DNA of 64,000 nucleotides from an uncultured Planctomycetia bacterium (GCA_964606485.1 CAZSGP010000002.1:138766-202765), one strand, 5' to 3'; shown: positions 15,689-57,753, numbered from the stretch's first letter. A program made the numbers and translations. The notes: generated by a model from the sequence alone, not told the origin.

Positions 15689-16879
15689 TTAAGCCAAAAT
15701 CTCCGAGATCACACCTGCTCCGACGGTATGACCGCCTTCACGAATGGCGAAGCGAAGTTCCTTCTCCATGGCGATGGGAGTGATGAGTTCGGCGCTGACC
15801 GAGATCGTGTCGCCGGGCATAACCATTTCCACATCCTTGGGAAGGGTGATGACTCCGGTCACGTCGGTGGTTCTAAAATAGAATTGGGGTTTGTAACCAT
15901 TAAAGAAGGCTGTGTGACGTCCACCCTCTTCTTTGGTCAGGATGTACACTTCGCCCTTGAACTTCGTGTGGGGAGTGATCGATCCGGGCTTCGCAAGAAC
16001 CTGGCCTCTTTCAAGACCGGTTTTATCGATGCCTCTAAGAAGTAGGCCGACATTGTCTCCGGCTTGTCCGTCGTCAAGAAGCTTACGGAACATTTCAATA
16101 CCGGTGATGACGGTTTTCTTAGTGGGGTGAATACCAACCACTTCGACTTCGTCGCCGACTTTGCAAAGACCGCGTTCGATACGGCCGGTTCCGACAGTGC
16201 CACGACCCGTGATCGAGAACACGTCTTCGATCGGCATGAGGAAGGGTTTATCCACTTCACGCTTGGGGGTTGGGACGTATTCGTCAACGGCTTTCATTAA
16301 ATCCATGATGCATTGAGTTTTGTTGTCGTCGGTGGGGTTGTTGAGAGCTTCTAAGGCTGAACCACGGACCACGGGGGTCTTTTCACCGGGGAATTGGTAC
16401 TTCGTGAGAAGCTCACGGACTTCCATTTCCACAAGATCTAAAAGTTCTTTGTCGTCCACCGCGTCGCACTTGTTGAGGAATACGACAATGGCAGGGACAC
16501 CGACCTGACGAGCTAAAAGAATGTGTTCACGAGTTTGAGGCATTGGACCATCAGCTGCTGACACGACAAGGATCGCTCCGTCCATTTGAGCGGCACCGGT
16601 GATCATGTTTTTGATGTAGTCAGCATGGCCCGGGCAATCGACGTGAGCGTAGTGACGGTTAGCGGTAGAGTATTCCACGTGAGAGACGGCGATCGTGATA
16701 CCACGCTCTCTTTCTTCGGGGGCGTTATCAATGGTGTCGAAAGCGCGAGCTTCGCATAAGCCTTTTTTAGCAAGAACGGTGGTGATGGCGGCAGTGAGAG
16801 TCGTTTTGCCGTGATCGACGTGACCGATGGTGCCGATGTTAACGTGCGGCTTAGAGCGTTCGAATTTTTCTTTGGACAT
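15689..16879 (-). CDS. tuf: elongation factor Tu (copy 2)
   Basis: Protein identical to copy 1; the nucleotide sequence appears identical across the CDS. Sits in the tRNA-tuf-rpmG-secE-nusG context. Confidence 0.97.
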
Positions 16880-46261: not shown

Positions 46262-49200
46262 TTAAGCGGCCTGGCGAATCAGGCGGTCGGCGAGTCTCGC
46301 GGCAGAAAAAGCCTGATTGAGCGTGAGTTTGGCGAGTGCCGGAATCGCTGAGAGCTCCGGATTGTCGAGATCGCTAGCATTTTGAATCTCGTGGCCCGTA
46401 AGCCGCCTCATCAATGAAAAAATATCTGCGAAGTTTTGATCATCCATCTTACGCATCCGCGCGCGTTTTAGACCGATTCGAATTTGCGCTCTAAAATTAG
46501 GGATGTCCCCTTCTTCTAAAGTTTTATGATAAGCAGGAATCGTTTTTGGATCCAACACTCCGCCCGGCGTGGTCAAAAGTGCGGCAGGAATATCGCCAAG
46601 ATCTGTTCCGTCCTCTACCAAATTATCCAGAAGAGACGGTTCCATAGCCTCGATTCTTTTTTTCACTTTTTCGATAAGCTGCGTATCCGTACTTCTTAAA
46701 ATAAATTTTGCATCCTTCTTTGCTAAACTCATTTCGCGGATCAAGATGGGCAGAATGATCTCATCAAACCCTTTAAGCGTCGGCCCAAATTGGTCCAGAT
46801 CCACGATGCCAGCCGCCTCCCCTTGTCCTTGCTTAAGATCTGCCAACGCCAAATTATTTTGCTCGTAAAGCATTTTGAAATCGGCCATGGGCATTTGAAT
46901 TTGAACCCGTTCAGCCTGAGCAGAGCCGGTTATTTTTTTCCAATTCACCTTTTGACTGCCATTGAGCGTCAGGGTTGCGTCGCCGTTGTCGACGTAATCC
47001 AACTCCAGAGCGCCCAACACCAGCTTGGCTGATTTTTCTTCGGTGGCCTGGCGGACACATGCCACGAAAATAACGGTCTCTTCCGGCAAAATCTTTCGCC
47101 CTACTTGTTCTTTGGCCAGCCGCGCGGCTGCGCTTTGCCTGTGTTCCTTTAAATAATGATGGAGCAAAAGTTTGGCCCTATGAAAAATATACGACTGACC
47201 CCGGAACTCGGAACGCTTACGAATCAAGACCTGTTTATTGTTGAGCTTGTTTTTAAAGCTTCGAAGAATTGCTAATTTAACACCGCCATTAGCAAATCCT
47301 TCGCGAATGATTTTTAAATCCGGCTCGAGACTTTGACGCACCGGTTCCGGTAGCGTGCGCACCACGGCGGCCAAGTATTTTATGTGCTCGCTCATACTCG
47401 CGAGCGTAAAATCAGACTCTATAAATACGCCTGAAAATTTTTCAATGACTCTTGAAAAATCCCGCTCAAGCATCTGGTCGATCTCTGCATCTTGCGCTTT
47501 TGAAAGCTCGGCATCCAGCGCTCGCAAAAGTGCCGCTTTCTCGATCTTGTCGTTTAAGAATTTCCCGATCACCTCGCGGCTAAAATAATCCCGCGCCTCC
47601 GGCTGAAGCCGGGTCCACTCCTCGGCAATTTTTAACCGCCAAGCACGCCGGACCTGCTCTCCCTGTACAACTCCCTTAAATGAGATGCCCGCCAAATTCC
47701 GCTTTGGAATAAAAGCCGCGGCGAGACCCGGTAAACGTAAAATGACCGCGTAATCGATCCAGAACTGTTTAAGGCGTTGGGGAATTTGAGTAACGGAACT
47801 GCCGTCAGAATCAGCAAGCCGCGCGCCGCTCTGAGACTCCTTGTCCGACTCGCTCCAAATATCAGAAATTTTTTTAAAAGCAGCCGGAATCCTGTGAATT
47901 GCAGTATCGGCCATAAAATAAATCACAAAACCCAGCCCATAGGCTGTCAGGAGGCTTTGGTAGGCTTGTAATTTAAATACGAAACTTAGTTGATGGAGGT
48001 CAGAGAGGGCCCAAGTGATATTTCCCAAAAAAAGCCAATAAATCGCAAGTCCTTGGGCAAACAGTGCAATCCAGGGCCTTTGATTCCAAATACCGGTCCG
48101 TAGTAGACCGATCGGAATCGCAACCCCCATAGAAAAGGGCAAGATCCCGCACAAAAAAACAGAAAATCGTGGCAAGTGGTGGCCAAAAACCGGCAGAGTG
48201 TATCCCGACGCAGCTCCGGGCGGATCGACATGGGCTACAACGCCCGGTACCCAAAGAACCGCTTGATTCAAAATTCCTGCAAAGGCGGTCGCTTCGGGGT
48301 TAAATCCGACGGCGGAGATCCCGCCCATTAAAAAAACGGGGATGTGGTGAAAAAGCTCGTGGCAAAAAAATGAAATCGCATTGAGCGGAAGGTAGTAACC
48401 AAAGTACGGGTCAAAAACAAAACTAAATCCGACGACAAAAAAAATCAGCTTCCGCCACTGCCAATCATTTTCGGCATTCAATGCTTTTTTCACAATTAAG
48501 GCGTGTAGAGGCAACATCGCAGCGGCATTCGCTAGATATTCGTAAGCGAGCCTCGCGCCCTGAGCGCGTTGTCCGGACCGAAGCGCGAACAACTCTTCCG
48601 CGGAAACTTCCACCACCGTCTGGTTATTAAAACGAGTATCGAGCAACGAGCAAATGCTGTCCCAACTTAGAAGAATATCAGGGTAATCCGTCCGATCGGG
48701 TCTTTGATAGCGAATGCCTACGCTCTCTGACGTCGCAACGATCATCGCTTTCTGCGCCGAACTTTTCATCGGCCGCTCAATCATCAGCTTGCGCGCATTT
48801 TTAGACTTGAGAGCCGCTTCGAGCTTCGGCATAATTCCAACAATGATCGCTCTTGTGTCTGCACGGAAACTACTGACTAAAATTTTTGGGGTTGTTGCTG
48901 GCAAACTGTCGATCGCTTCAATAATTTCCCGCGCTTTAGCCGCAGAATAGTCGTCCAACACCGGTGCTTTGTTGGGAAGTAAATGCTGGTGCAAAACCGC
49001 GCCTTGAGGCGCGCGGCCCTTCTCTAGGGAAACAGCAACAATGCCCTGACAATTGAACAATCCACCTGTCGCGAGCATCGTGTGGCTATTCAATTCGCCC
49101 GAAATCATCGCGGACTTTTCAGGAGAACCGAATTCCGCATTCAAAATCTTGAAACCCTGCCCACGGTAAACATCAGTCGCCACTCTCATGAACGGTGCCT

Positions 49201-52200
49201 CCTCCCGAAACCGTTGATAGGCGTTTAAGGCGAGCCGCGCGCCAATTTTTGATGCTGCTTTGCGACGATAATAGCGGAATCGTTCAGCACGTTTTCGGGC
49301 GTGCCCAATAGCCGACCGCCGCTCAGACAAAGGATTGTAATCGCGGCGCATGTCGGCCATCTTGGATAAAATTCGGGCACTGTGCTTCCAAGAGATGAAT
49401 GTTATTTCCACCCCCATGGCGCGCGCGAATCTTCGAAATTGAATTCTCTCGTTCCTACTACCAATTGGACGGCGCGCCGCCCTCCAAGCCCGCCATGAAT
49501 TCCAGACCATGTCGGAATCAATGGGGCCAACTTTTCCGGCGATCAATCGCCCATCCACCGACCGGATGAAAGTGACTCCAAGCGGCGAAATATGAAAATT
49601 TTGAGTGCCCATATTCACGAAATTAGCGATATCGTGCTCGGAGGGCATTTTGAGCCAATTCACGTTGTATCCCGGGCCCATATTGTGTGTGTGAAAATCA
49701 ATTATAATCCGGCCTTGTTTAGCGAGCTCATTCAATTCACCGGTCAGCTCAACGTTCGTTTTATCTCCCGTGACGAGTAACCATTCGCCGCTGTCGAGAT
49801 AGATGATTTCCACTTCGAAATCAAGATGTAGCATCCAACGCATGTCCGACAAGTTTGGCATGTAACGAATTTGGAATACCCGCTGGCGGCCCGGCCGCAC
49901 TAGTCGCAACGCTTCCCGCAATTTCGCCATCGTTAAAATGGGATAACTGCCTTTTTTAGTAGCTTGTTTTTGCCAAATAGCAACGCTCGAGGAAAGCCGC
50001 GCGCCAAATTTCTCATCGGCCAATCGACGCGCCTCTTTTCGCCGCTCGCGCGTTAAAATACTTCCTCTTTTTGAAATCCAAAAACGGATCACCGAAAATA
50101 AACGGGCCGAGTAGCGGTTCGCCGGACCCACGTAAACGCGATAGGCTAATTTCCGAATAAATTGCCCCGCCGTCATGTCCACCGCGATGTCGCCGCTGGG
50201 AGTTTGAAGAACTGCATAATCATGAACCGGACGATCCTGAATATAAATTCTTTCAATTCTTGAGGGGATATTTAATTCATACAGCGCATCCAGTAACAGT
50301 GCCGTCACCACCTGGCAGAAGCCGCCATCGGGTGCTCCATAAAAAAGAAGGGTCGCGTAACGATCTCTATCCCCTTCTTTCAAAGTTAATCGAAGTTCGC
50401 TGTTGTAGAGCGCCCCAATAAATTTTTTGAGTGCCGGGCCGTGAAGATTCATCGCCTTTCGGACCGATTCCAAGCTAATTTCCTCACTTCTTAATGAAGC
50501 GAACGCAAGAACGATCGACTCTTTGAATAAATCATGCATCAGTCGGTCTGCGTCCAACATGCTTTCGTGTTGTGCGTCACGGTCTGAGGACAATCTAGAA
50601 CCTTCGGAGAGCCGCGCGCCTCCCATTAGGCCTTCCAATAGAGCTACCTTCGTTTTTCCATCATCATAAAGGCGCTTGATGAGCTGGTGTTTTTTGGTAG
50701 TTCGGGCATTGATTTCAGCGATGGTTTCGGGTAAAGCGCCGGGCGCATCTGCCGCCGTCAGTAGCAGCGGCGAGTCGATTCTTTCAAGCTTCGCGCTCCA
50801 AGATTCAGAGGATGCTCTAATTCTATTTAACATCTCCAGATAACGTTCAGCAGCTTGGCGAACACGAACTTTATCTGTTCGGCCATCTTTCGCCAAACGA
50901 ATCAACAAATCCGCAAAAGATAAAAATCTTGCCACACTTTCTGAACTCACCCCAAGATCAGGGTCGATCACCGCGGGTGACGATAGATAAGCTAAATACC
51001 CTTCGGCATCTTCCAGGTCATCCTCATCGAAAAGAGGCGCGGATTCGAAATAGATCCTCATAGCCCGTAGAAGCAAGTAATGACGCCTGAGAATCGTCGC
51101 CTCTTCATCTTCTCCAAATCGCGAAATATCGAGATCAACTGACGCGGCATCGTAACCGAATCTTGCGCTCATTTGATCCAGACTCGGGGCAAGATCGGAC
51201 TGGTTTAAATTTAAAAAAATCCTCTTCACGGTATTAATTCCGGTGGACGAGGAAGCATCTCCCAGCTCACCCCGCTGATATAGATGGAACCAGCGATCAG
51301 CCGAATCATGTGTCAGCGACAACCCTTTTTGGGCCTGAGAAAGAACATCTTCTGGTCTAAGCGCGTCAACCTCACGAAAAACCTTTTCTTTTAAAGGATG
51401 ATCGACCGTAAGAAACGTTTGAATATCCGCGTTCCCGCCAAGATGCCTTAAGATCAGATTGCCCATCCACGGATCGGACAAAAGCGAGCTTTTGACGGCC
51501 AACCGCGCGCCCGACCCGTCTTTTGAAGTATCACCTCTCTCGATGCCTTTTTCACGATCCATAAATTTACTGTCTTTTATAAATTTTTCTACAACGCCAA
51601 ACGTCATTAAAACCGAGGAAAGATCTAAAATAATATCAACGACTATACGGCGAATTTGTCTAGCGCTTCTGGGACGAATCTTCCGAATGCGATCGACGTG
51701 CCCTTCAAACCTAAATATCATTCGGTGCCACAACCGTCTAAAGTCATCAAACATGGCGTACGCAAAACCGCAGGTGGGTCCGGCAAGATAAATAAGCAGA
51801 CACCCCCCAACCCCAAAAATTAGAAAGTCCAGAGAAGCGCCGGATGAGAGGCGCGCGCCGTCTTCACGTACCACCCACTTACTCGGAGCAACGGTGAGAT
51901 CAGCAACAAAATCGACATCGGCTGCCGATTTTTGCGCATACAGCTCCCAAGCTTGGTTCTTTAACTCGATCAACCTTCGGCGAAACTCGATAAACGCGTC
52001 ATCTCCTTTATAGAGCTGCCGAGAACGCTCGACAAATCTCTCCGTGGTTGCGCGCGAATCGCTTTTCAAGCGAACGTGAAGATGAGGTATCGCATCCCGT
52101 TCAAAATTCAATAAATGCGCGCACGTCCAATCCACTAGAAGGACATCGCCTTTTTTAAAGGTAAATTCTTTTGGGCCCATTTTGCGCTCGTTGCGATGAT

Positions 52201-55200
52201 AGGCGTTGGGGACCATAATGCGGGTTTCTTGGGATACGTCTTGATTCAGGAAATGACTGCGCAGCTTGTCAAAAAATCGACTCACCTCTTCAACCTGGTA
52301 AGTGTCTTCGTACTCCGTAGTAAACGGCTTTCCGGCACTCACTATTTTTTTAAAAATAGCTGCTTTTTTTTCGGGATCAATCAGGAATAGGTCTATATCG
52401 AGAGGCTCGTTTGGAGTCGAAACGCCGATCAGTCTGAGAGCGGGCGCGAGAGCGCGTGTTAGCGTCGTTTTTCCGCCGCCCGAAAGACCATCAAAAAATA
52501 CAATACCGCCGGACGGCAAATGTTTTTTGATTTGCCCTGCAAGTTGCTCCGCCAATCTTTTATAAGCTTCAACTTCTTCCGGCGAAATTTGAGCGGACCT
52601 GCCTCGCTCTGCGGCCAGCCGCATATTAAGCTCTGACGAATAAGCGATCTTGCCGTCAGCGGCCAATCTCGACGCCGCCTTTAGCGCTTGATTCAGATAA
52701 GCGATGGCGCGCTTTTGATCGTCCTTTTTAAGCGCATGCAGTCCCAAGATGTGGGATACGGCAAATAAATTTCTTTGTGGGAAAAGCTCCTGAATCAAAA
52801 TCGCCACATCGAAATAGTCATCGGTGCGAATCGAGTTGTCGTCCTTGAGCAGAGAAAAAATAACCGCTAAATCTTCAAGCGCCACATTCCCCGTTTTTTC
52901 TTTGGCGTCGGCTGAGCCGCCGATTCCGCCAATTGAGCCGTCAAAATGCGTCATTCCCTCTTCGAGAGCGACGAGAACATTCACGAGGCCCAAACCGTGA
53001 TCGTGCAAATGCCACCCGAATTCCAAACCTTCAAACGGCCCGCCCTTTTTATTTCTTTTCAAGACAAACCGTGAAAATTTCCGAATATCCTCAGGCTTTG
53101 CCCTTCCGGAAGTATCGCTCAGCCAAATTTTTGTGACCCCATTGTCCCGGAGCGCCCTGATATTGGCGGCCAGCATTTTAAAAGTAACCTTCTCTTTGCT
53201 GTAAGAGGGAATCGCCGAAATATAACCGTGCTTTTCGATCGAATGCCCAGTTTCCCGTTCATAGCCGGCAATCTCGTTCAGCATGGGGACCACTTTCGCC
53301 GTAAAATCCTCCAGCGGGCTCTTGTCGATTCTGGCTGCCCGCTCCATTTTTTTTGCCATTTTTTCCTTCAGCTTAGCTTTCTCGTCAGCGCCAGTCTCGA
53401 TAGCAATGCTTTTTTCTAATTCTTTAATATAGCGCTCGGAAACTTGTTGATTGTCTTTTAGATACTCCTTCGAGGCCGACGTCCACACCGCGATCGCTTG
53501 AGGTCGAGCGTCGCTCTCACGCAATTTGCTCCAGGATTCTTGATTGAACAGCAAATGGCGCACCGTCGGCACTTCGTGATCTTTGCGATATTCGGCTAGC
53601 CATCTGGCAAATTCAGGAGAATCTGCCATCGATGCATAGACCCCGAACGAAGTCGCTTCGAGCGGAAGACCAAGCTTAAACAAAAGCTTCGCGAGTTTTT
53701 TCTTAGATTCGGTGGTTAGAATCGGCTTCAGGCTTTGAATGCCGTCCCGCAGGGTGTCGTCGCTGATGTAAATTTTATTTATGTTCAGGATTTTTTTAAC
53801 TTTTTCTAAATCCACTCCGGAAGCGTTGAGTTTCGAAATAAATTCGTCAATCCGCGCTTTGATATCATCAAACTCTACGGTCTCCGCTAGCCTCGTAGCT
53901 TGAATTTTTAGCTCTTCTGCGGAAATTTCAACCACCGTCTGGTTATTAAAACGAGTATCGAGCAGCGAGCGAATGCTGTCCCAACTGAGAAGAATATCAG
54001 GGTAATCCGTTCGATCAGGTTTTTGAGTGCGGATACCCACACTCTCCGACGTCGCAACGATCATCGCTTTCTGCGCAGAACTTTTCATCGGTCGCTCAAT
54101 CATCAACATGCGCGCGTTTTTAGACTTGAGGGCCGCTTCGAGCTTCGGCATCATGCCAACAATAAGCGCTCGTGTATCTGCGCGAAAACTGCTGATTAGA
54201 ATTTTTGGGGCGGGACTAGGCAAGCTGTCAGCGGCCTCTATGATTTCTTGCGCTTTGATCGCCAAATAGTCGTCCGATGCTGGAGCTTTACTGGGAAGTA
54301 AATGCTGGTGTAAAACCGTTCCCTGAGTCGCGCGGCCCTTCTCCAGCGAAACAGCTACAGCTCCCTGACAATTGAACAATCCGCCTGTCGCAAGCATCGT
54401 CCGGTCATTCAACTCCCCGGAAATCATCGCAGACTTTTCAGGAGAGCCAAATTCCGCGTTCAATATTTTGAAACCCTGGTCACGGTAAACATTAGTCTCC
54501 GCTCTCATAAACGGTGCTTTCTCCCGAAACCGTTGATAAGCATTTAAGGCGAGGCGGGCGCCATCTCCACCTTTTTGTTGACCACTCACCACCTCCGGAG
54601 TGGAAATGGGTAGTTTCTCGAAATCATTTCGAAGAAGCCCAACTGTATCGCGCCCCATCAACCCTGCGTCCATCACGGACACGGTCTGAAGCATGCTCGC
54701 CGGAACGCTTAAAAACTTTGGAGTGGAATTCGACCCCAAAAGAATCTGCTCGTACCGCTTTTGATTGGTTTCGTGCAGGACCTGAGGGCGAAGTGAAATG
54801 TAGGAAATATTTTTAGAACGCAGAATCGACTTGAGATTGGCGGTGTGATAGCCGCCTGTGATCAAAACTGATAACAGCGGGTCCTGCCGGCGGTTGTCCG
54901 TTCGAAAGCCACCTTCGGTGTTTTCGAGACGGACGCCTACCGCCGTCACCCGCTGCTGCTCAGCTTGATTCAGCATATTCTCAATAAATTTTTCATCGCG
55001 CTTAAGTGTTAGTGTGTAAAACGCTTCCGCGCTTGTAACGATTTCGTCGAAACCCGGCTCAAGGAAGGCGGCGTGTTCATAAAATTGCTTCTGTTCCATG
55101 ATTTTTAAGTTCAGAAATCCGGTCAGCGGCTTGATGCTGTCGCCTGCTTTTTTGAATTCAGCGTATTCTTCAGGCGTTAGCTGAAAGTTAAACAGCTTTC

Positions 55201-56197
55201 GGTAAAAATAAAGCGTTCGGACAGAACGAAGCAAGTTTTGCTCATCCGGCGTTTGAGCCAAACTTTGAAAGACTTCATTTTCCATAGCCTTCTGCTCGGT
55301 CATTAAGTCTGAATAATTCAACGCCTTCGACGAACGAATGATTCTTTCGAGGATTGTCTTCTGATGCTTCGGGGAAACCTTGAGACGATCCAGCTTCTTC
55401 TCGAGTGCTTTTAGTTTTTGGAGGCGTTTGAAATTCGGATAACGACCCTTGATGGGCTGACTCATCAGAATATCCGCGTAAACCACGAAGGAGGTTTCGC
55501 CTTTACGGTATTTCTCGTAAGAGTTTTCAAAGGATAAAAGGACAGGGTTTAGAATCCGGGGTTTCAGCACTTCAATCGTATTCTGAATTTTATCGAGATA
55601 ACTTTCAAAGCGTCCGCGCTCACTAGCCACACCGCGATACAGTTCTAGCGCTTGCCGGTATAAATCTTTGTCCTCTACGCCCCATAACTGAAAGTCGTGG
55701 TCAGATATAAGGTCTAAATATTCTTCGCCGTGAATCAGCCCCTTTTGAAGATAACTTCTGGCAATATTTTTTCTTTGCTCGGTGCTTCCGTATTGACGCA
55801 AGAAGGAAAGCGAGTCGTTTCCGAAGCCGCCTTCGACGAAAACCTGGATCTTATCGTCATTCCTGCGCAAGCGGGAATCTAATCGCTCTGATCCCCGCCT
55901 ACGCGGGGATGACTGGATATTTTTCGCCAAAATTAGATCAAGCGACTTCGCAAGATTGAGCTGTCCTGAAGGATTGGTGTGCGCATCCTGTAAGAGGATG
56001 ACGATCTGCGGACCACCATGCCACGCATCTTCCACAGTTGCCATCGAAGAAGGAATTGAAGGTAAAACGCTTTCAGCCCATTTCGCGCTTTGAAATTGCT
56101 GGAATTTCAGGAAGTCAAAACTTTTGGAATCAGGGTTCGCAAAACTTAAATCCTGCAGAAAAAAAGTAAAAACGAGCCCCAAGGAAATGGCTTTCAT
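46262..56197 (-). CDS. giant (3311 aa) multidomain membrane-associated protein of unknown function
   Basis: An uninterrupted 9,936-nt ORF. It has a signal-peptide-like N-terminus, a duplicated ~220-aa domain, a DRE-TIM/HMGL-like domain (DTLRDGIQS, DTSGRAKPEDI, HLHDHGLG...DGSIGGIGG), a P-loop motif (GLSGGGKTT), TM helices near aa ~1470 and ~1530, a TM bundle at aa ~2540-2760 with HELFHH, an in-frame 75-nt repeat insertion, and a recurrent GARL(A/S) motif. Confidence 0.75.
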   Translation of the reverse strand: MKAISLGLVFTFFLQDLSFANPDSKSFDFLKFQQFQSAKWAESVLPSIPSSMATVEDAWHGGPQIVILLQDAHTNPSGQLNLAKSLDLILAKNIQSSPRRRGSERLDSRLRRNDDKIQVFVEGGFGNDSLSFLRQYGSTEQRKNIARSYLQKGLIHGEEYLDLISDHDFQLWGVEDKDLYRQALELYRGVASERGRFESYLDKIQNTIEVLKPRILNPVLLSFENSYEKYRKGETSFVVYADILMSQPIKGRYPNFKRLQKLKALEKKLDRLKVSPKHQKTILERIIRSSKALNYSDLMTEQKAMENEVFQSLAQTPDEQNLLRSVRTLYFYRKLFNFQLTPEEYAEFKKAGDSIKPLTGFLNLKIMEQKQFYEHAAFLEPGFDEIVTSAEAFYTLTLKRDEKFIENMLNQAEQQRVTAVGVRLENTEGGFRTDNRRQDPLLSVLITGGYHTANLKSILRSKNISYISLRPQVLHETNQKRYEQILLGSNSTPKFLSVPASMLQTVSVMDAGLMGRDTVGLLRNDFEKLPISTPEVVSGQQKGGDGARLALNAYQRFREKAPFMRAETNVYRDQGFKILNAEFGSPEKSAMISGELNDRTMLATGGLFNCQGAVAVSLEKGRATQGTVLHQHLLPSKAPASDDYLAIKAQEIIEAADSLPSPAPKILISSFRADTRALIVGMMPKLEAALKSKNARMLMIERPMKSSAQKAMIVATSESVGIRTQKPDRTDYPDILLSWDSIRSLLDTRFNNQTVVEISAEELKIQATRLAETVEFDDIKARIDEFISKLNASGVDLEKVKKILNINKIYISDDTLRDGIQSLKPILTTESKKKLAKLLFKLGLPLEATSFGVYASMADSPEFARWLAEYRKDHEVPTVRHLLFNQESWSKLRESDARPQAIAVWTSASKEYLKDNQQVSERYIKELEKSIAIETGADEKAKLKEKMAKKMERAARIDKSPLEDFTAKVVPMLNEIAGYERETGHSIEKHGYISAIPSYSKEKVTFKMLAANIRALRDNGVTKIWLSDTSGRAKPEDIRKFSRFVLKRNKKGGPFEGLEFGWHLHDHGLGLVNVLVALEEGMTHFDGSIGGIGGSADAKEKTGNVALEDLAVIFSLLKDDNSIRTDDYFDVAILIQELFPQRNLFAVSHILGLHALKKDDQKRAIAYLNQALKAASRLAADGKIAYSSELNMRLAAERGRSAQISPEEVEAYKRLAEQLAGQIKKHLPSGGIVFFDGLSGGGKTTLTRALAPALRLIGVSTPNEPLDIDLFLIDPEKKAAIFKKIVSAGKPFTTEYEDTYQVEEVSRFFDKLRSHFLNQDVSQETRIMVPNAYHRNERKMGPKEFTFKKGDVLLVDWTCAHLLNFERDAIPHLHVRLKSDSRATTERFVERSRQLYKGDDAFIEFRRRLIELKNQAWELYAQKSAADVDFVADLTVAPSKWVVREDGARLSSGASLDFLIFGVGGCLLIYLAGPTCGFAYAMFDDFRRLWHRMIFRFEGHVDRIRKIRPRSARQIRRIVVDIILDLSSVLMTFGVVEKFIKDSKFMDREKGIERGDTSKDGSGARLAVKSSLLSDPWMGNLILRHLGGNADIQTFLTVDHPLKEKVFREVDALRPEDVLSQAQKGLSLTHDSADRWFHLYQRGELGDASSSTGINTVKRIFLNLNQSDLAPSLDQMSARFGYDAASVDLDISRFGEDEEATILRRHYLLLRAMRIYFESAPLFDEDDLEDAEGYLAYLSSPAVIDPDLGVSSESVARFLSFADLLIRLAKDGRTDKVRVRQAAERYLEMLNRIRASSESWSAKLERIDSPLLLTAADAPGALPETIAEINARTTKKHQLIKRLYDDGKTKVALLEGLMGGARLSEGSRLSSDRDAQHESMLDADRLMHDLFKESIVLAFASLRSEEISLESVRKAMNLHGPALKKFIGALYNSELRLTLKEGDRDRYATLLFYGAPDGGFCQVVTALLLDALYELNIPSRIERIYIQDRPVHDYAVLQTPSGDIAVDMTAGQFIRKLAYRVYVGPANRYSARLFSVIRFWISKRGSILTRERRKEARRLADEKFGARLSSSVAIWQKQATKKGSYPILTMAKLREALRLVRPGRQRVFQIRYMPNLSDMRWMLHLDFEVEIIYLDSGEWLLVTGDKTNVELTGELNELAKQGRIIIDFHTHNMGPGYNVNWLKMPSEHDIANFVNMGTQNFHISPLGVTFIRSVDGRLIAGKVGPIDSDMVWNSWRAWRAARRPIGSRNERIQFRRFARAMGVEITFISWKHSARILSKMADMRRDYNPLSERRSAIGHARKRAERFRYYRRKAASKIGARLALNAYQRFREEAPFMRVATDVYRGQGFKILNAEFGSPEKSAMISGELNSHTMLATGGLFNCQGIVAVSLEKGRAPQGAVLHQHLLPNKAPVLDDYSAAKAREIIEAIDSLPATTPKILVSSFRADTRAIIVGIMPKLEAALKSKNARKLMIERPMKSSAQKAMIVATSESVGIRYQRPDRTDYPDILLSWDSICSLLDTRFNNQTVVEVSAEELFALRSGQRAQGARLAYEYLANAAAMLPLHALIVKKALNAENDWQWRKLIFFVVGFSFVFDPYFGYYLPLNAISFFCHELFHHIPVFLMGGISAVGFNPEATAFAGILNQAVLWVPGVVAHVDPPGAASGYTLPVFGHHLPRFSVFLCGILPFSMGVAIPIGLLRTGIWNQRPWIALFAQGLAIYWLFLGNITWALSDLHQLSFVFKLQAYQSLLTAYGLGFVIYFMADTAIHRIPAAFKKISDIWSESDKESQSGARLADSDGSSVTQIPQRLKQFWIDYAVILRLPGLAAAFIPKRNLAGISFKGVVQGEQVRRAWRLKIAEEWTRLQPEARDYFSREVIGKFLNDKIEKAALLRALDAELSKAQDAEIDQMLERDFSRVIEKFSGVFIESDFTLASMSEHIKYLAAVVRTLPEPVRQSLEPDLKIIREGFANGGVKLAILRSFKNKLNNKQVLIRKRSEFRGQSYIFHRAKLLLHHYLKEHRQSAAARLAKEQVGRKILPEETVIFVACVRQATEEKSAKLVLGALELDYVDNGDATLTLNGSQKVNWKKITGSAQAERVQIQMPMADFKMLYEQNNLALADLKQGQGEAAGIVDLDQFGPTLKGFDEIILPILIREMSLAKKDAKFILRSTDTQLIEKVKKRIEAMEPSLLDNLVEDGTDLGDIPAALLTTPGGVLDPKTIPAYHKTLEEGDIPNFRAQIRIGLKRARMRKMDDQNFADIFSLMRRLTGHEIQNASDLDNPELSAIPALAKLTLNQAFSAARLADRLIRQAA
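48612..49245 (-). repeat. intragenic duplication, unit B (~640 bp) within the giant ORF
   Basis: Paralogous to 53925..54565. Encodes the second copy of the ~220-aa domain, immediately N-terminal of the HExxH transmembrane domain. Confidence 0.85.
53925..54565 (-). repeat. intragenic duplication, unit A (~640 bp) within the giant ORF
   Basis: About 88-90% nucleotide identity to 48612..49245. Encodes GARLALNAYQRF...MLATGGLFNCQG...VVEISAEEL. Confidence 0.85.
54879..54951 (+). repeat. 75-nt palindromic repeat element, copy 3 (in-frame insertion inside the giant ORF)
   Basis: The same core, with the complementary flank cagcggg/cccgctg. In the host frame it reads RVTAVGVRLENTEGGFRTDNRRQDP. Confidence 0.85.
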
Positions 56198-56199
56198 AA

Positions 56200-56394
56200 A
56201 AAAACCATACCGCCTTTTAGTCTTTGATTTTAAATCGGTTATGAAACTCGAGATAATTTACCCCTTGGGTTTTAGACACTCAAAATTTACACGAGTCAGG
56301 AGGGAAATTCAAACTTTTAGAACTATAATAATTTATTAAAATTTATTAAATAATAACAACTTCTAATTAGAATTTTTAAAAAAATAAATGGGGA
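56200..56394 (-). promoter_or_regulatory. AT-rich putative promoter region of the giant gene
   Basis: About 190-bp spacer with >75% A+T, containing direct repeats aatttattaaa x2 and TTGACA/TATAAT-like hexamers. No specific element is resolvable by eye. Confidence 0.3.
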
Positions 56395-57753
56395 TTATTC
56401 GATAGGGATTAAAATGGGTTCAGAACCGTATTGACTCCGGGTGTCAGCCGATAAAACGGTTAATTGAATACAGGCTTTTGAGGTCTCGTATTCGGGCTGG
56501 CCCAAGCCCATGTCCATAACGGGCCGGCGAACCACACTCCCGTTGATTAAAAAATCATCTTCAGCGGATTGCCCGGGTTCGATCGTGATCGAATCAACGG
56601 ACGTATATACACCCATGATACTTCCCATCGAAAAATAAAAAGGGCCATCCTGTCCCTCGCCGGACCAGTTAAGTTTTCCATTGGGCTTAAATAGATGGAT
56701 CGATTCGGATCCGCTATTCGCTAGCCGCGCATGAAAAGAGTAAACGCCCGGCGACGAAATACCTTTGAAATCAAGCGTGATATTCAACCCTTCTCTCTGA
56801 TAAGTTGAGGCAACGGTGATGCGATTGCTCCACACCGGCTTTTCATAACCTTTGCGGTAAAAACCAAGGCGAAAACTCTTGAATGTTTGTAAACGCAAAT
56901 TTGCCGCCATGGAATCCATGGGATGCGAATATGAAAAAAGAAGCTCTCCTTCAAAAGGCTTTCCCGGAACGAGCTCCATCTGGTCTTCCCCCCGCTGCCC
57001 CCACGGAATCGAAGCGACATGGCCCGTCGAAACCCAGGGTTCATAACCGGGTGTATTCATGAGTCCTTCGGTCGTAAGCGTAAGGGGTTCACCACCCTTA
57101 TTCGACACGCGGTAGCGCGCGACATGCATGGGCACATTCTGCATTGACGCGGTTTTTTTGACGGACAAAATCTCAAGTGTAATGACTGGATCCTCGGCCT
57201 CATCTAGCGGATAGATGATTAGCGCTTCGTCGGGATCCTGCGGTAAAATTTTGGTCTGCGCCAGCGCCTCAATCCGATCTACGGCTTTAGACATCAGGAT
57301 TTTTAAATCCTCCAAATTTTTAAATTCTATCGAGTTTAAATTTTTGAGAGTCGAGCGGCTAGAAAAAATTTTAAGTCCTCTATTGGCACTCAAAAAAATG
57401 CGGTCATCATCAACGTTCAATCCGACAACGCCATACAAACCTCCGAATGAAGTGCTGAAAAATCCTCCGAACATTCGGTAATCCCGGATTTTTTGGTATA
57501 GATTACCCAATGATTTCTGGTCTAAAACTGCTGTCTTCTCGTCTTGTGTGACAACGAGGCTGTAGATATTCTTATCGGGATCAAACACGACAAAAGCGCC
57601 AATAGGGTTTGGTTTTCCAGGAAGCACTTCAAAGGATTCGATTGTCCGTGCTTTAGGACCTACGATTTTTGAAAAATCAGGCGAGTCTGCGTAAGAAAAC
57701 GGCGCTAATAATAAAACCCACAAAACCAAAAAAGCTTTTGGTTTTATTCCCAT
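56395..57753 (-). CDS. secreted hypothetical protein (signal peptide, no recognisable domain)
   Basis: 452 aa. The N-terminus [27 protein letters not shown] is signal-peptide-like. No motif recognised. Lies directly upstream of the giant gene on the same strand. Confidence 0.6.

Follow-up and report, generated by a model that had tools for sequence, protein, structure and literature searches.

Punctuated mosaic proteins of Omnitrophota and a candidate processing motif at their module boundaries

A giant gene among housekeeping genes

In the 64,000-nucleotide stretch CAZSGP010000002.1:138766-202765 of the assembly GCA_964606485.1, which was analysed as a whole and is referred to as the window, a scan for open reading frames (ORFs) identifies an uninterrupted frame of 3,311 codons extending from ATG to stop on the minus strand (46262-56197), whose product, a giant mosaic protein, is the subject of this study. 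An earlier note on this DNA, made without stating the strand, had described a single uninterrupted ORF in a genome of about 48% GC, and both descriptions are confirmed by our data, with a GC content of 0.48-0.50 along the ORF that matches the remainder of the window. The gene dnaE begins 49 bp downstream of the ORF, guaA, rnhB, trmD and aroA are located upstream, and hisS, aspS, tuf, fusA, rpoC and rpoB are found elsewhere in the window. The giant gene is chromosomal, resides among housekeeping genes and lies outside any mobile element. The 197-bp gap upstream of its start codon contains two matches to a sigma-70-like promoter consensus on the same strand (56322-56379).

The encoded protein is punctuated by 13 copies of a short motif, which we term joints and which divide the chain into a 549-residue head, 12 modules of 116-408 amino acids (aa) and a 9-residue tail. 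From the N- to the C-terminus (with all nucleotide coordinates referring to the minus strand), joint 1 (G-A-R-L-A, aa 546-550; 54548-54562) precedes module 1 (aa 550-770; 53888-54550), the first copy of a deamidase-like module with a CheD/CNF1/BLF1 fold (T604, C610, H630), which ends at the degenerate joint 2 (A-T-R-L-A, aa 767-771; 53885-53899) that conforms to a relaxed version of the motif. It is followed by module 2 (aa 771-1178; 52664-53887), containing an HMGL-like DRE-TIM domain, and by the relaxed joint 3 (A-S-R-L-A, aa 1175-1179; 52661-52675), which falls exactly between this domain and the P-loop domain of module 3 (aa 1179-1450; 51848-52663), assigned as NTPase/kinase-like from sub-threshold matches and carrying the Walker A sequence GLSGGGKTT. 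Joint 4 (G-A-R-L-S, aa 1447-1451; 51845-51859) leads into the small module 4 (aa 1451-1566; 51500-51847) with its two hydrophobic helices, joint 5 (G-A-R-L-A, aa 1563-1567; 51497-51511) into module 5 (aa 1567-1863; 50609-51499), for which no Pfam relatives were detected, and the tandem joints 6 and 7 (G-A-R-L-S-E-G-S-R-L-S, aa 1860-1870; 50588-50620) into module 6 (aa 1870-2068; 49994-50590), a rare module and putative Cys-His-Asp hydrolase (C1961, H1992, D2007). Beyond joint 8 (G-A-R-L-S, aa 2065-2069; 49991-50005) lies module 7 (aa 2069-2322; 49232-49993), which is also rare and displays a JAMM/MPN+-type signature (E2128, H2169-x-H2171, S2186-x-x-D2189), and beyond joint 9 (G-A-R-L-A, aa 2319-2323; 49229-49243) module 8 (aa 2323-2550; 48548-49231), the second deamidase-like copy (T2377, C2383, H2403). 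Joint 10 (G-A-R-L-A, aa 2547-2551; 48545-48559) separates the latter from the hydrophobic multi-helix module 9 (aa 2551-2794; 47816-48547) with the sequence HELFHH, and joint 11 (G-A-R-L-A, aa 2791-2795; 47813-47827) precedes module 10 (aa 2795-3027; 47117-47815), again without detected Pfam relatives. Module 11 (aa 3028-3302; 46292-47116) finally connects joint 12 (A-A-R-L-A, aa 3024-3028; 47114-47128) to joint 13 (A-A-R-L-A, aa 3299-3303), which is embedded in the tail.

A family defined by a shared head

A homologue search of 5.8 billion proteins retrieved 118 relatives of this query protein, with lengths of 1.8-5.7 thousand amino acids (kaa). Nearly all relatives with a named source are labelled Omnitrophota, and the assignment of the family to this phylum rests on these labels. 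In species-representative genomes (one genome per species) we located 206 family loci, with several paralogues per genome, some of them in tandem. Tandem family genes are found at loci L012, L022, L030, L052 and L053, each of which is cut at its upstream edge within another motif-rich giant ORF of the same orientation.

The relatives share with the query only its first ~500 residues, corresponding to the head before joint 1. Each part of aa 1-500 is aligned by 76-117 of the 118 relatives, and a hidden Markov model (HMM) of the head domain matches all 119 family proteins. The last ~250 residues of the query, which comprise most of module 11, are common to about eight relatives. Behind the head, relatives carry cargo such as hexokinase, TIM, PGK, aldolase, phosphomannomutase, adenylate kinase (ADK), PEPCK and malate synthase, and also sigma-70, CsrA, protein kinases, methyltransferases and M48/M50 peptidases. 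The family is characterized by a hydrophobic leader followed by a ~470-residue head, a variable chain of modules with short joints and, in most members, a conserved C-terminal tail. Judged from these features, we place the query in a family of punctuated mosaic proteins specific to Omnitrophota. Its combination of domains had been described as unprecedented, and the exact set of modules is indeed found nowhere else, but the kind of architecture is not new and recurs with differing cargo throughout a large Omnitrophota family, as evident from the 118 relatives and 206 loci. One relative, P0048, carries isocitrate lyase (PF00463) and malate synthase (PF01274) domains; a recent study describes the glyoxylate shunt as missing from all 176 complete Omnitrophota genomes (Nielsen & Lui, bioRxiv 10.64898/2026.06.07.730766), and enzymes residing inside giants may affect such metabolic reconstructions.

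The presence of the family head exactly at the N-terminus and of the family tail exactly at the C-terminus of one ORF points to a complete gene rather than an assembly chimera. The source is presumably a metagenome-assembled contig, and an identical protein is recorded from an NCBI contig of 401 kb. Nothing was found in favour of an artefact, be it a chimera or genes falsely merged by sequencing errors. With its uniform composition and the recurrence of the same architecture, at 1.9-5.7 kaa, in more than 100 independent assemblies, we assign this explanation a negligible probability.

A conserved pentapeptide at module boundaries

The pentapeptide [G/A]-A-R-L-[A/S] occurs in 10 copies in the query, where its core GARL is observed 8 times compared to an expectation of 0.16. 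All 10 [G/A]ARL sites encoded by the 37 long ORFs of the window sit in the giant protein and none in the other 36 ORFs, and a relaxed grammar adds three query sites starting at aa 767 (A-T-R-L-A), aa 1175 (A-S-R-L-A) and aa 1866 (G-S-R-L-S). Across the family, an unbiased count of 4-mers recovers as enriched only motifs found once per protein in the head (QDAHTN, LWGVE, ITGGYHT) together with GARL (498 observed versus 16 expected, in 86 of the 119 proteins) and GARM (94 versus 3); GARLA is 238-fold enriched. The resulting grammar can be written as [G>A]-[A>S]-R-[L~M>>F]-[A>S>T>G>V], in which Lys does not replace Arg, neither Ile nor Val replaces Leu or Met, and the following residue is small.

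Every synonymous codon is in use at the joints, including AGR for Arg and TTG for Leu, and the DNA word GGCGCGCGG is found in the coding frame in 75 of its 80 same-strand occurrences within giant ORFs, with few copies in antisense orientation or beyond these ORFs. This frame-specificity, combined with the variety of synonymous codons, places the signal at the level of the peptide and not of the DNA, and the former rules out a purely DNA-level repeat as the main signal. Two further candidates were rejected. Internal translation starts at the Leu/Met codon (NTG) are ruled out, as GARV, where this codon would be GTG, is not enriched (8 observed versus 9.5 expected), and are also contradicted by the use of CTC or CTT at 7 of the 10 query [G/A]ARL sites. 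A self-cleaving or otherwise structured RNA inside the ORF finds no support in a structured-RNA scan, which gave no Rfam matches within it.

The flavour of the motif differs between genomes, with AARL prevailing over GARL at a ratio of 17:3 in one of them, GARM dominating at 13:2 in another and GARL occurring 46 times in a third; a few genomes are nearly joint-free. Such concerted divergence within genomes is expected of a motif that co-evolves with a recognition factor. Joints are lacking in 24 family members, among which some contain relaxed variants (GSRL, [A/S]xRM[T/A], AGSRV) in excess and several contain none. P0128 (6,894 aa) and P0109 (5,198 aa) repeat a different linker motif, x-R-[A/S]-E-V-R, with 12 and 5 copies, respectively; RAEVR is ~1,260-fold enriched in P0128, a protein with neither GAR[L/M] joints nor the QDAH head motif. 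Mosaic giants may use several such punctuation dialects.

The location of the joints defines them as module boundaries. Between paralogues, 30-40% of alignment ends lie no more than 15 residues from a joint, compared to 7% for random positions, and joints are threefold depleted inside these alignments. In P0006 and P0112, all joints lie outside Pfam domains and every module comprises a single whole protein: the modules contain complete ADK, PEPCK, FBPase, CsrA (in a module of 94 aa), TIM (in a module of 303 aa), iPGM and a two-domain hexokinase whose halves are kept together. The spacing of joints has a median of 249 aa, with 73% of the values between 100 and 700 aa. Modules are connected by flexible linkers of ~20-25 residues with the pentapeptide at their centre, the disorder propensity is increased within ~10 residues on either side of the joints (p = 1e-14 to 1e-20), and stretches leading into joints show low pLDDT in both structure models, as observed for the predicted disordered linker that extends up to joint 1 of the query (aa 491-545, pLDDT <50; 54563-54727). 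The HMGL-like and P-loop domains of the query are each enclosed by joints, as are the two copies of its duplicated unit, which comprises exactly one joint-to-joint module with both copies starting as G|ARLALNAY and finishing at a joint. For three dark modules of the query, stand-alone relatives exist, with lengths of 225-433 aa. We regard the modules, on this comparative evidence, as independent whole proteins, either enzymes, regulators or membrane modules, that are shuffled as units between paralogues.

We propose that the pentapeptide is a proteolytic processing site, where the gene product would be cut into its modules, and we estimate a probability of about one half that the protein is a polyprotein processed at its joints. 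Processing sites in MARTX toxins lie in unstructured inter-effector segments and have Leu at P1 flanked by small residues (PMC2900308), and by analogy with this small-Leu-small arrangement a cut after Leu or Met would be most plausible. Joints in flexible linkers would equally suit docking as they would cleavage, and the protein might instead be an uncleaved scaffold resembling beads on a string, in which the pentapeptide would act as a hinge or as a docking motif for the head, a chaperone or the export machine, or would have been inherited with the linker during shuffling. In published work, the larger Omnitrophota giants are indeed treated as single membrane-anchored proteins whose cleavage was never shown. 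However, a spacer would neither keep a strict grammar with an invariant Arg, no Lys and no Ile or Val, nor survive synonymous codon turnover or diverge in concert within genomes. It is also hard to picture how unrelated whole proteins, including the regulators CsrA and sigma-70 in relatives, would work while tethered. An uncleaved scaffold thus appears unlikely.

A predicted hydrolase at the N-terminus

The hydrophobic leader of the query (aa 1-21, MKAISLGLVFTFFLQDLSFAN; 56135-56197) was assigned from its hydrophobicity and its conservation in the family, where it follows the pattern ..L[KR]xIS..F..Q[DEQ]..[FY]A[AN]P. The N-terminus had previously been noted to resemble a secretion signal, and its hydrophobic, signal-like character and conserved sequence bear this out. 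It is followed by the head domain (aa ~22-490; 54728-56134), whose AlphaFold model (pLDDT 83, pTM 0.77) displays an α/β fold of the TIKI/ChaN/EreA/RRSP-type with a parallel β-sheet core and a large helical insert. In an alignment of 36 heads, D71, A72, H73, N75, Q79, E122, E175, R400, D401, G448, G449 and H451 are invariant. Among these residues, D71-x-H73, E122, R400 and H451, each located just after a predicted strand, constitute a catalytic-type set that follows the order found in RRSP, a TIKI-family endopeptidase with catalytic E3900-x-H3902, E3930 and H4030 and a conserved R4001 (PMC6254334). Across all 119 proteins, these catalytic positions show no substitutions, the only deviations being gaps in 8 sequences with truncated N-termini. 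Given this invariance, the head is very probably an active hydrolase.

In comparison to other members of the TIKI/TraB/PrgY/ChaN/erythromycin-esterase superfamily, the head contains an Asp in place of the first Glu and a ~240-residue helical insertion (aa ~177-420) that splits the fold, and it reaches no Pfam family at threshold. Matches to PF04187 stay below threshold in 5 of 36 heads (best E = 0.003) and none is found in the query. A second insertion, predicted with low confidence (QRVTAVGVRLENTEGGFRTDNRRQDPLLS, aa 416-444; 54866-54952) and located just before the catalytic TGGYH strand, is present nearly verbatim in P0002 and P0012 and absent from most other members.

As the sole globular domain common to all members, and as part of a superfamily that includes site-specific endopeptidases such as RRSP and Tiki, the head is the leading candidate for the processing enzyme, which would act in cis or on paralogues. 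We put this assignment forward as a possibility and with clearly less confidence than processing itself.

A conserved C-terminal tail

The family tail of the query (aa 3285-3311, IPALAKLTLNQAFSAARLADRLIRQAA-COOH; 46265-46345) includes joint 13 and a terminal Q-A-A. Among the family, 97 of 119 members end in [A/S][A/V/L], compared to ~4% expected by chance, with Q-A-A being the most frequent ending. The consensus of the ~27-residue tail, L-P-P-[IL]-x-[RK]-[VLI]-x-[ILV]-x3-L-[QR]-[AG]-A-R-[LM]-A-x-[RK]-M-x-[EG]-Q-[AS]-A, which often holds one more joint element, is matched by the query sequence with its C-terminus ...SAARLADRLIRQAA. Small residues are also found at the ends of several proteins that contain neither head nor joints, namely the stand-alone cargo relatives P0120, P0124 and P0135 and the other giants P0125, P0128, P0130 and P0131, with ...SSA, ...SGA, ...RAA, ...ATA, ...AAA, ...QSA and ...VAA observed in this group of seven, and the terminal [A/S]-A signature may extend beyond the GAR[L/M]A family.

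Tail-specific proteases recognise small non-polar C-termini, and a protease encoded elsewhere, for example of the Tsp/Ctp-type docking on the ...Q-A-A-COOH tail, could cut the joints; the head would in this case have another task, either as an esterase or hydrolase with a substrate in the host or the envelope, or as a membrane tether. Besides the conserved tail, this explanation would account for a motif flavour that is common to all paralogues of a genome, as fits a single trans-acting factor, and for the full retention of the catalytic residues of the head in joint-less members. On the other hand, no candidate protease was identified within the 64 kb of genome, and no motif-rich ORF demonstrably devoid of the head domain was seen in the flanks of family loci, as expected if head and joints act together. 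We consider the involvement of a protease encoded elsewhere doubtful.

Cargo of the query

The assignment of a DRE-TIM or HMGL-like domain made in the earlier note is substantiated by a Pfam match above threshold (PF00682, aa 808-1131, 76.8 bits versus a cut-off of 29, E = 2e-21) that covers positions 1-256 of the 260 of the model. The domain remains below the NCBIfam cut-offs, with PRK05692 as best match (78.5 bits versus 246) and LeuA models at 30-44 bits versus >500, and what we take to be the equivalent of the GGC-P signature of HMG-CoA lyase reads GGS-A by eye. We classify it from these scores as a divergent DRE-TIM member, whose assignment as an HMG-CoA lyase or isopropylmalate synthase proper is not supported. 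For the P-loop domain, the Walker A motif is present as described, but its designation as uridine-kinase/PRK-like is not supported by the generic, sub-threshold matches to AAA_18 (E = 2e-4), TsaE (E = 1e-4) and APS kinase (E = 0.02) and by a single NCBIfam kinase match (PRK07667, E = 0.026). The two isolated transmembrane segments of module 4 were recovered as strong hydrophobic helices (aa 1458-1476 and 1518-1536). Similarly, a hydrophobic module with the sequence HELFHH exists, but its relation to M50 or M48 peptidases finds no support in any peptidase-family match: module 9 has no Pfam match at E <= 10 and no relative among 1.84 billion representative proteins.

The unit of ~225 residues that was known to be present twice (aa 547-770 and 2320-2550) shows 83% identity between copies and, described before as a domain of unknown function, has a CheD/CNF1/BLF1 fold with conserved Cys and His (and Thr) at catalytic positions, which makes it a predicted deamidase-like module. 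Unlike the CheD/CNF1/BLF1/NTAN1 deamidases, it shows no match to the Pfam CheD family and contains ~80 extra residues at its C-terminus, and it has only four relatives among the 1.84 billion representatives. In module 7, which has stand-alone relatives of 320-433 aa, E63, H104, H106, S121 and D124 (in module numbering) are invariant in nine sequences of ~22% identity. A search with the profile of this module against PDB sequences (hmmsearch) retrieved no JAB protein, there are no Pfam matches, and its motif suggests a putative JAMM assignment. Module 6, with stand-alone relatives of 225-318 aa, contains an invariant Cys, His and Asp and is a putative hydrolase. Single-sequence searches of PDB and Pfam with the dark modules gave nothing significant, and the rare dark modules together have 18 matches among the 1.84 billion representatives. 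HMMs of three dark modules match no other family member, which identifies them as cargo and not as family processing machinery; the putative hydrolase modules of the query are on the same grounds ruled out as a family-wide processing enzyme.

The cargo of the query, with its two deamidase-fold, JAMM-signature, Cys-His-Asp, HMG-CoA-lyase-like and P-loop modules, is by its predicted features hydrolase-rich and effector-like. In the reading of the earlier note, the lyase, the kinase and the membrane-embedded HExxH motif would cooperate in a single machine, as a pathway or a toxin-processing unit fused into one protein. The module combination is unique and several modules are hydrolase-like, as such a machine would suggest. 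Nevertheless, paralogues carry unrelated enzyme sets behind the same head and tail, modules shuffle as units, the dark modules recur in no other member but have stand-alone relatives, and the kinase-family and M50/M48 assignments are unsupported. This proposal is not borne out and an integrated machine is very improbable.

Two other features of the window were noticed. A 452-aa ORF on the minus strand (56395-57753) lies directly upstream of the giant gene, shares 10 bp with guaA and is matched by neither Pfam nor PADLOC models. Two 396-aa EF-Tu genes on the same strand (359-1549 and 15689-16879) obtain identical Pfam scores and are probably identical or nearly identical copies of tuf, located ~14 kb apart and flanking the fusA-rpoC-rpoB block; hypervariable regions of Omnitrophota chromosomes are described to contain EF-Tu and ribosomal-protein genes (Nielsen & Lui, bioRxiv 10.64898/2026.06.07.730766).

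Discussion

In the mechanism proposed for this family, the signal-like leader would place processing at or beyond the cytoplasmic membrane. In its most far-reaching form, which we offer as speculation, Omnitrophota would routinely make true polyproteins composed of whole enzymes, regulators and effectors. A Sec-like leader would mediate their export, and their own TIKI-fold head would act as the protease that cuts at GAR[L/M]|A, possibly as the chain emerges. Such genes would number dozens to hundreds per genome-set, other lineages would punctuate with further dialects, x-R-[A/S]-E-V-R being one example, and giants of 10-147 kaa would follow an equivalent scheme. The system would then correspond, in cells, to the expression of polyproteins by viruses.

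Several points weigh against processing by the head. We infer cleavage at the joints from sequence patterns alone. The family was collected via its head domain, and the coupling between motif and head was controlled only against flanking ORFs of ~250,000 residues and the other ORFs of the window. The catalytic set of the head is equally intact in all 24 joint-less members, which implies that joint cleavage is not its only role and that the protease may be encoded elsewhere. The TIKI superfamily also holds esterases (Ere) and the haem-binding ChaN, and the fold is no proof of a peptidase. A topological puzzle arises from a Sec-like leader preceding enzymes and regulators that are normally cytoplasmic (TIM, hexokinase, CsrA and sigma-70 in relatives), and the same puzzle is noted in the literature on larger Omnitrophota giants.

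A further point concerns codon usage. In joints of the query ORF (for example at 54551-54562 and 51848-51859) and in 253 joints of the loci L001-L078, codons are skewed ~2-fold towards GGC-GCG-CGG relative to the same ORFs, with GGC accounting for 65% versus 35%, GCG for 60% versus 35% and CGG for 47% versus 20%, a bias that is left unexplained by a peptide-only model and that might reflect microhomology helping the shuffling of modules. Combined with the exchange of modules as motif-bounded units and the duplication of one module with its joints in the query, this skew could indicate that the motif is primarily a DNA element, a GC-rich in-frame microhomology (GGCGCGCGGCT) used for cassette recombination with the peptide as by-product. 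We find this improbable, since the amino acids are kept through synonymous changes outside of the wobble position (CGN/AGR, CTN/TTG) and through the alternation between Leu and Met, and since a DNA signal would be indifferent to the frame in which GGCGCGCGG predominantly resides. The skew could aid recombination secondarily.

The organization of the family bears resemblance to several known systems. MARTX proteins of Vibrio are similar in size (up to ~5,200 aa) and in their conserved ends and shuffled variable middle modules, and their effector RRSP shares its TIKI fold with the head. The L/M-containing motif in the flexible linkers of the present family would be analogous to the Leu-containing processing sites of MARTX. 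In MARTX, the TIKI domain is cargo, whereas it is the conserved head in the present family. Neither RTX repeats nor a C80 cysteine-protease domain were detected in the query (scanned over its full length, it matches only HMGL-like and weak P-loop families of Pfam at E <= 1), its motif has an obligatory Arg before L/M, its leader is Sec-like in contrast to a type I secretion architecture, and the organism is an uncultivated, ultra-small and probably host-dependent bacterium. Viral polyproteins also combine many unrelated modules in one polypeptide; each boundary is marked by a short, conserved motif for cleavage, and the protease is encoded in cis. In a general comparison, unrelated modules are equally found in the polyvalent proteins that phages and conjugative elements encode (Iyer et al., 2017, PMC5512222). 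Different from both systems, the gene described here is chromosomal with housekeeping neighbours, PADLOC defence models give no meaningful match to its product, and core metabolic enzymes are part of the family cargo.

Omnitrophota are known for giant mosaic ORFs, a hallmark of the phylum (Seymour et al., 2023, PMC10066038), where mosaic giants and Archaeovorins have already been described (West-Roberts et al., 2023, bioRxiv 10.1101/2023.11.21.568195; Nielsen & Lui; Seymour et al.) and where proteins of at least 10 kaa include a class of multi-enzyme metabolic clusters (Nielsen & Lui, 2026, bioRxiv 10.64898/2026.06.07.730766). Post-translational cleavage is suspected in these studies, with C39 or S8 peptidase domains proposed as processing enzymes, and one of them states that the cleavage points were unknown, which blocked structural analysis. 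The present family resembles the published giants in its phylum (by source labels) and in a single ORF tiled with unrelated enzymes of cytoplasmic type together with signal-peptide and transmembrane segments. The published proteins have at least 10 kaa (Nielsen & Lui) or are encoded by ORFs of >20 kb (Seymour et al.), compared to 3,311 aa and 9.9 kb in the query and 1.9-5.7 kaa in the family. GARL appears in neither preprint text (West-Roberts et al.; Nielsen & Lui), and a TIKI-fold head and Q-A-A tail are undescribed in the accessible portions of West-Roberts et al., Nielsen & Lui and Seymour et al. A search that left most subscription journals outside its reach found no paper linking Omnitrophota to polyprotein, Tiki/TraB, polyvalent or autoproteolytic proteins. 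The GAR[L/M]A joints, the TIKI-fold head and the conserved tail had also been overlooked in the earlier note. What we consider the main result, as read from the sequences, is the definition of a family by head, joints and tail together with a strict candidate processing motif; the uniqueness of the query is in this respect trivial, as the cargo of every member is unique.

Giant mosaics fill a large share of the reduced Omnitrophota genomes, where they may function either as intact molecules or as cleaved fragments. The joints offer a concrete and falsifiable cleavage map with the first testable cut sites, and a rule for splitting giants for structure prediction and annotation, and the invariant TIKI-fold head constitutes a specific candidate enzyme. 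If processing holds true, the family would represent a polyprotein system of cellular origin whose scale is otherwise known only among viruses and a handful of toxins, and the metabolic potential of these organisms would have to be re-read, as enzymes hidden in giants would count. If, beyond that, polyproteins were made routinely, the joints would fill in the cleavage map that is lacking for the largest bacterial proteins known. Even without cleavage, the definition by head, joints and tail organises hundreds of unnamed hypothetical giant ORFs.

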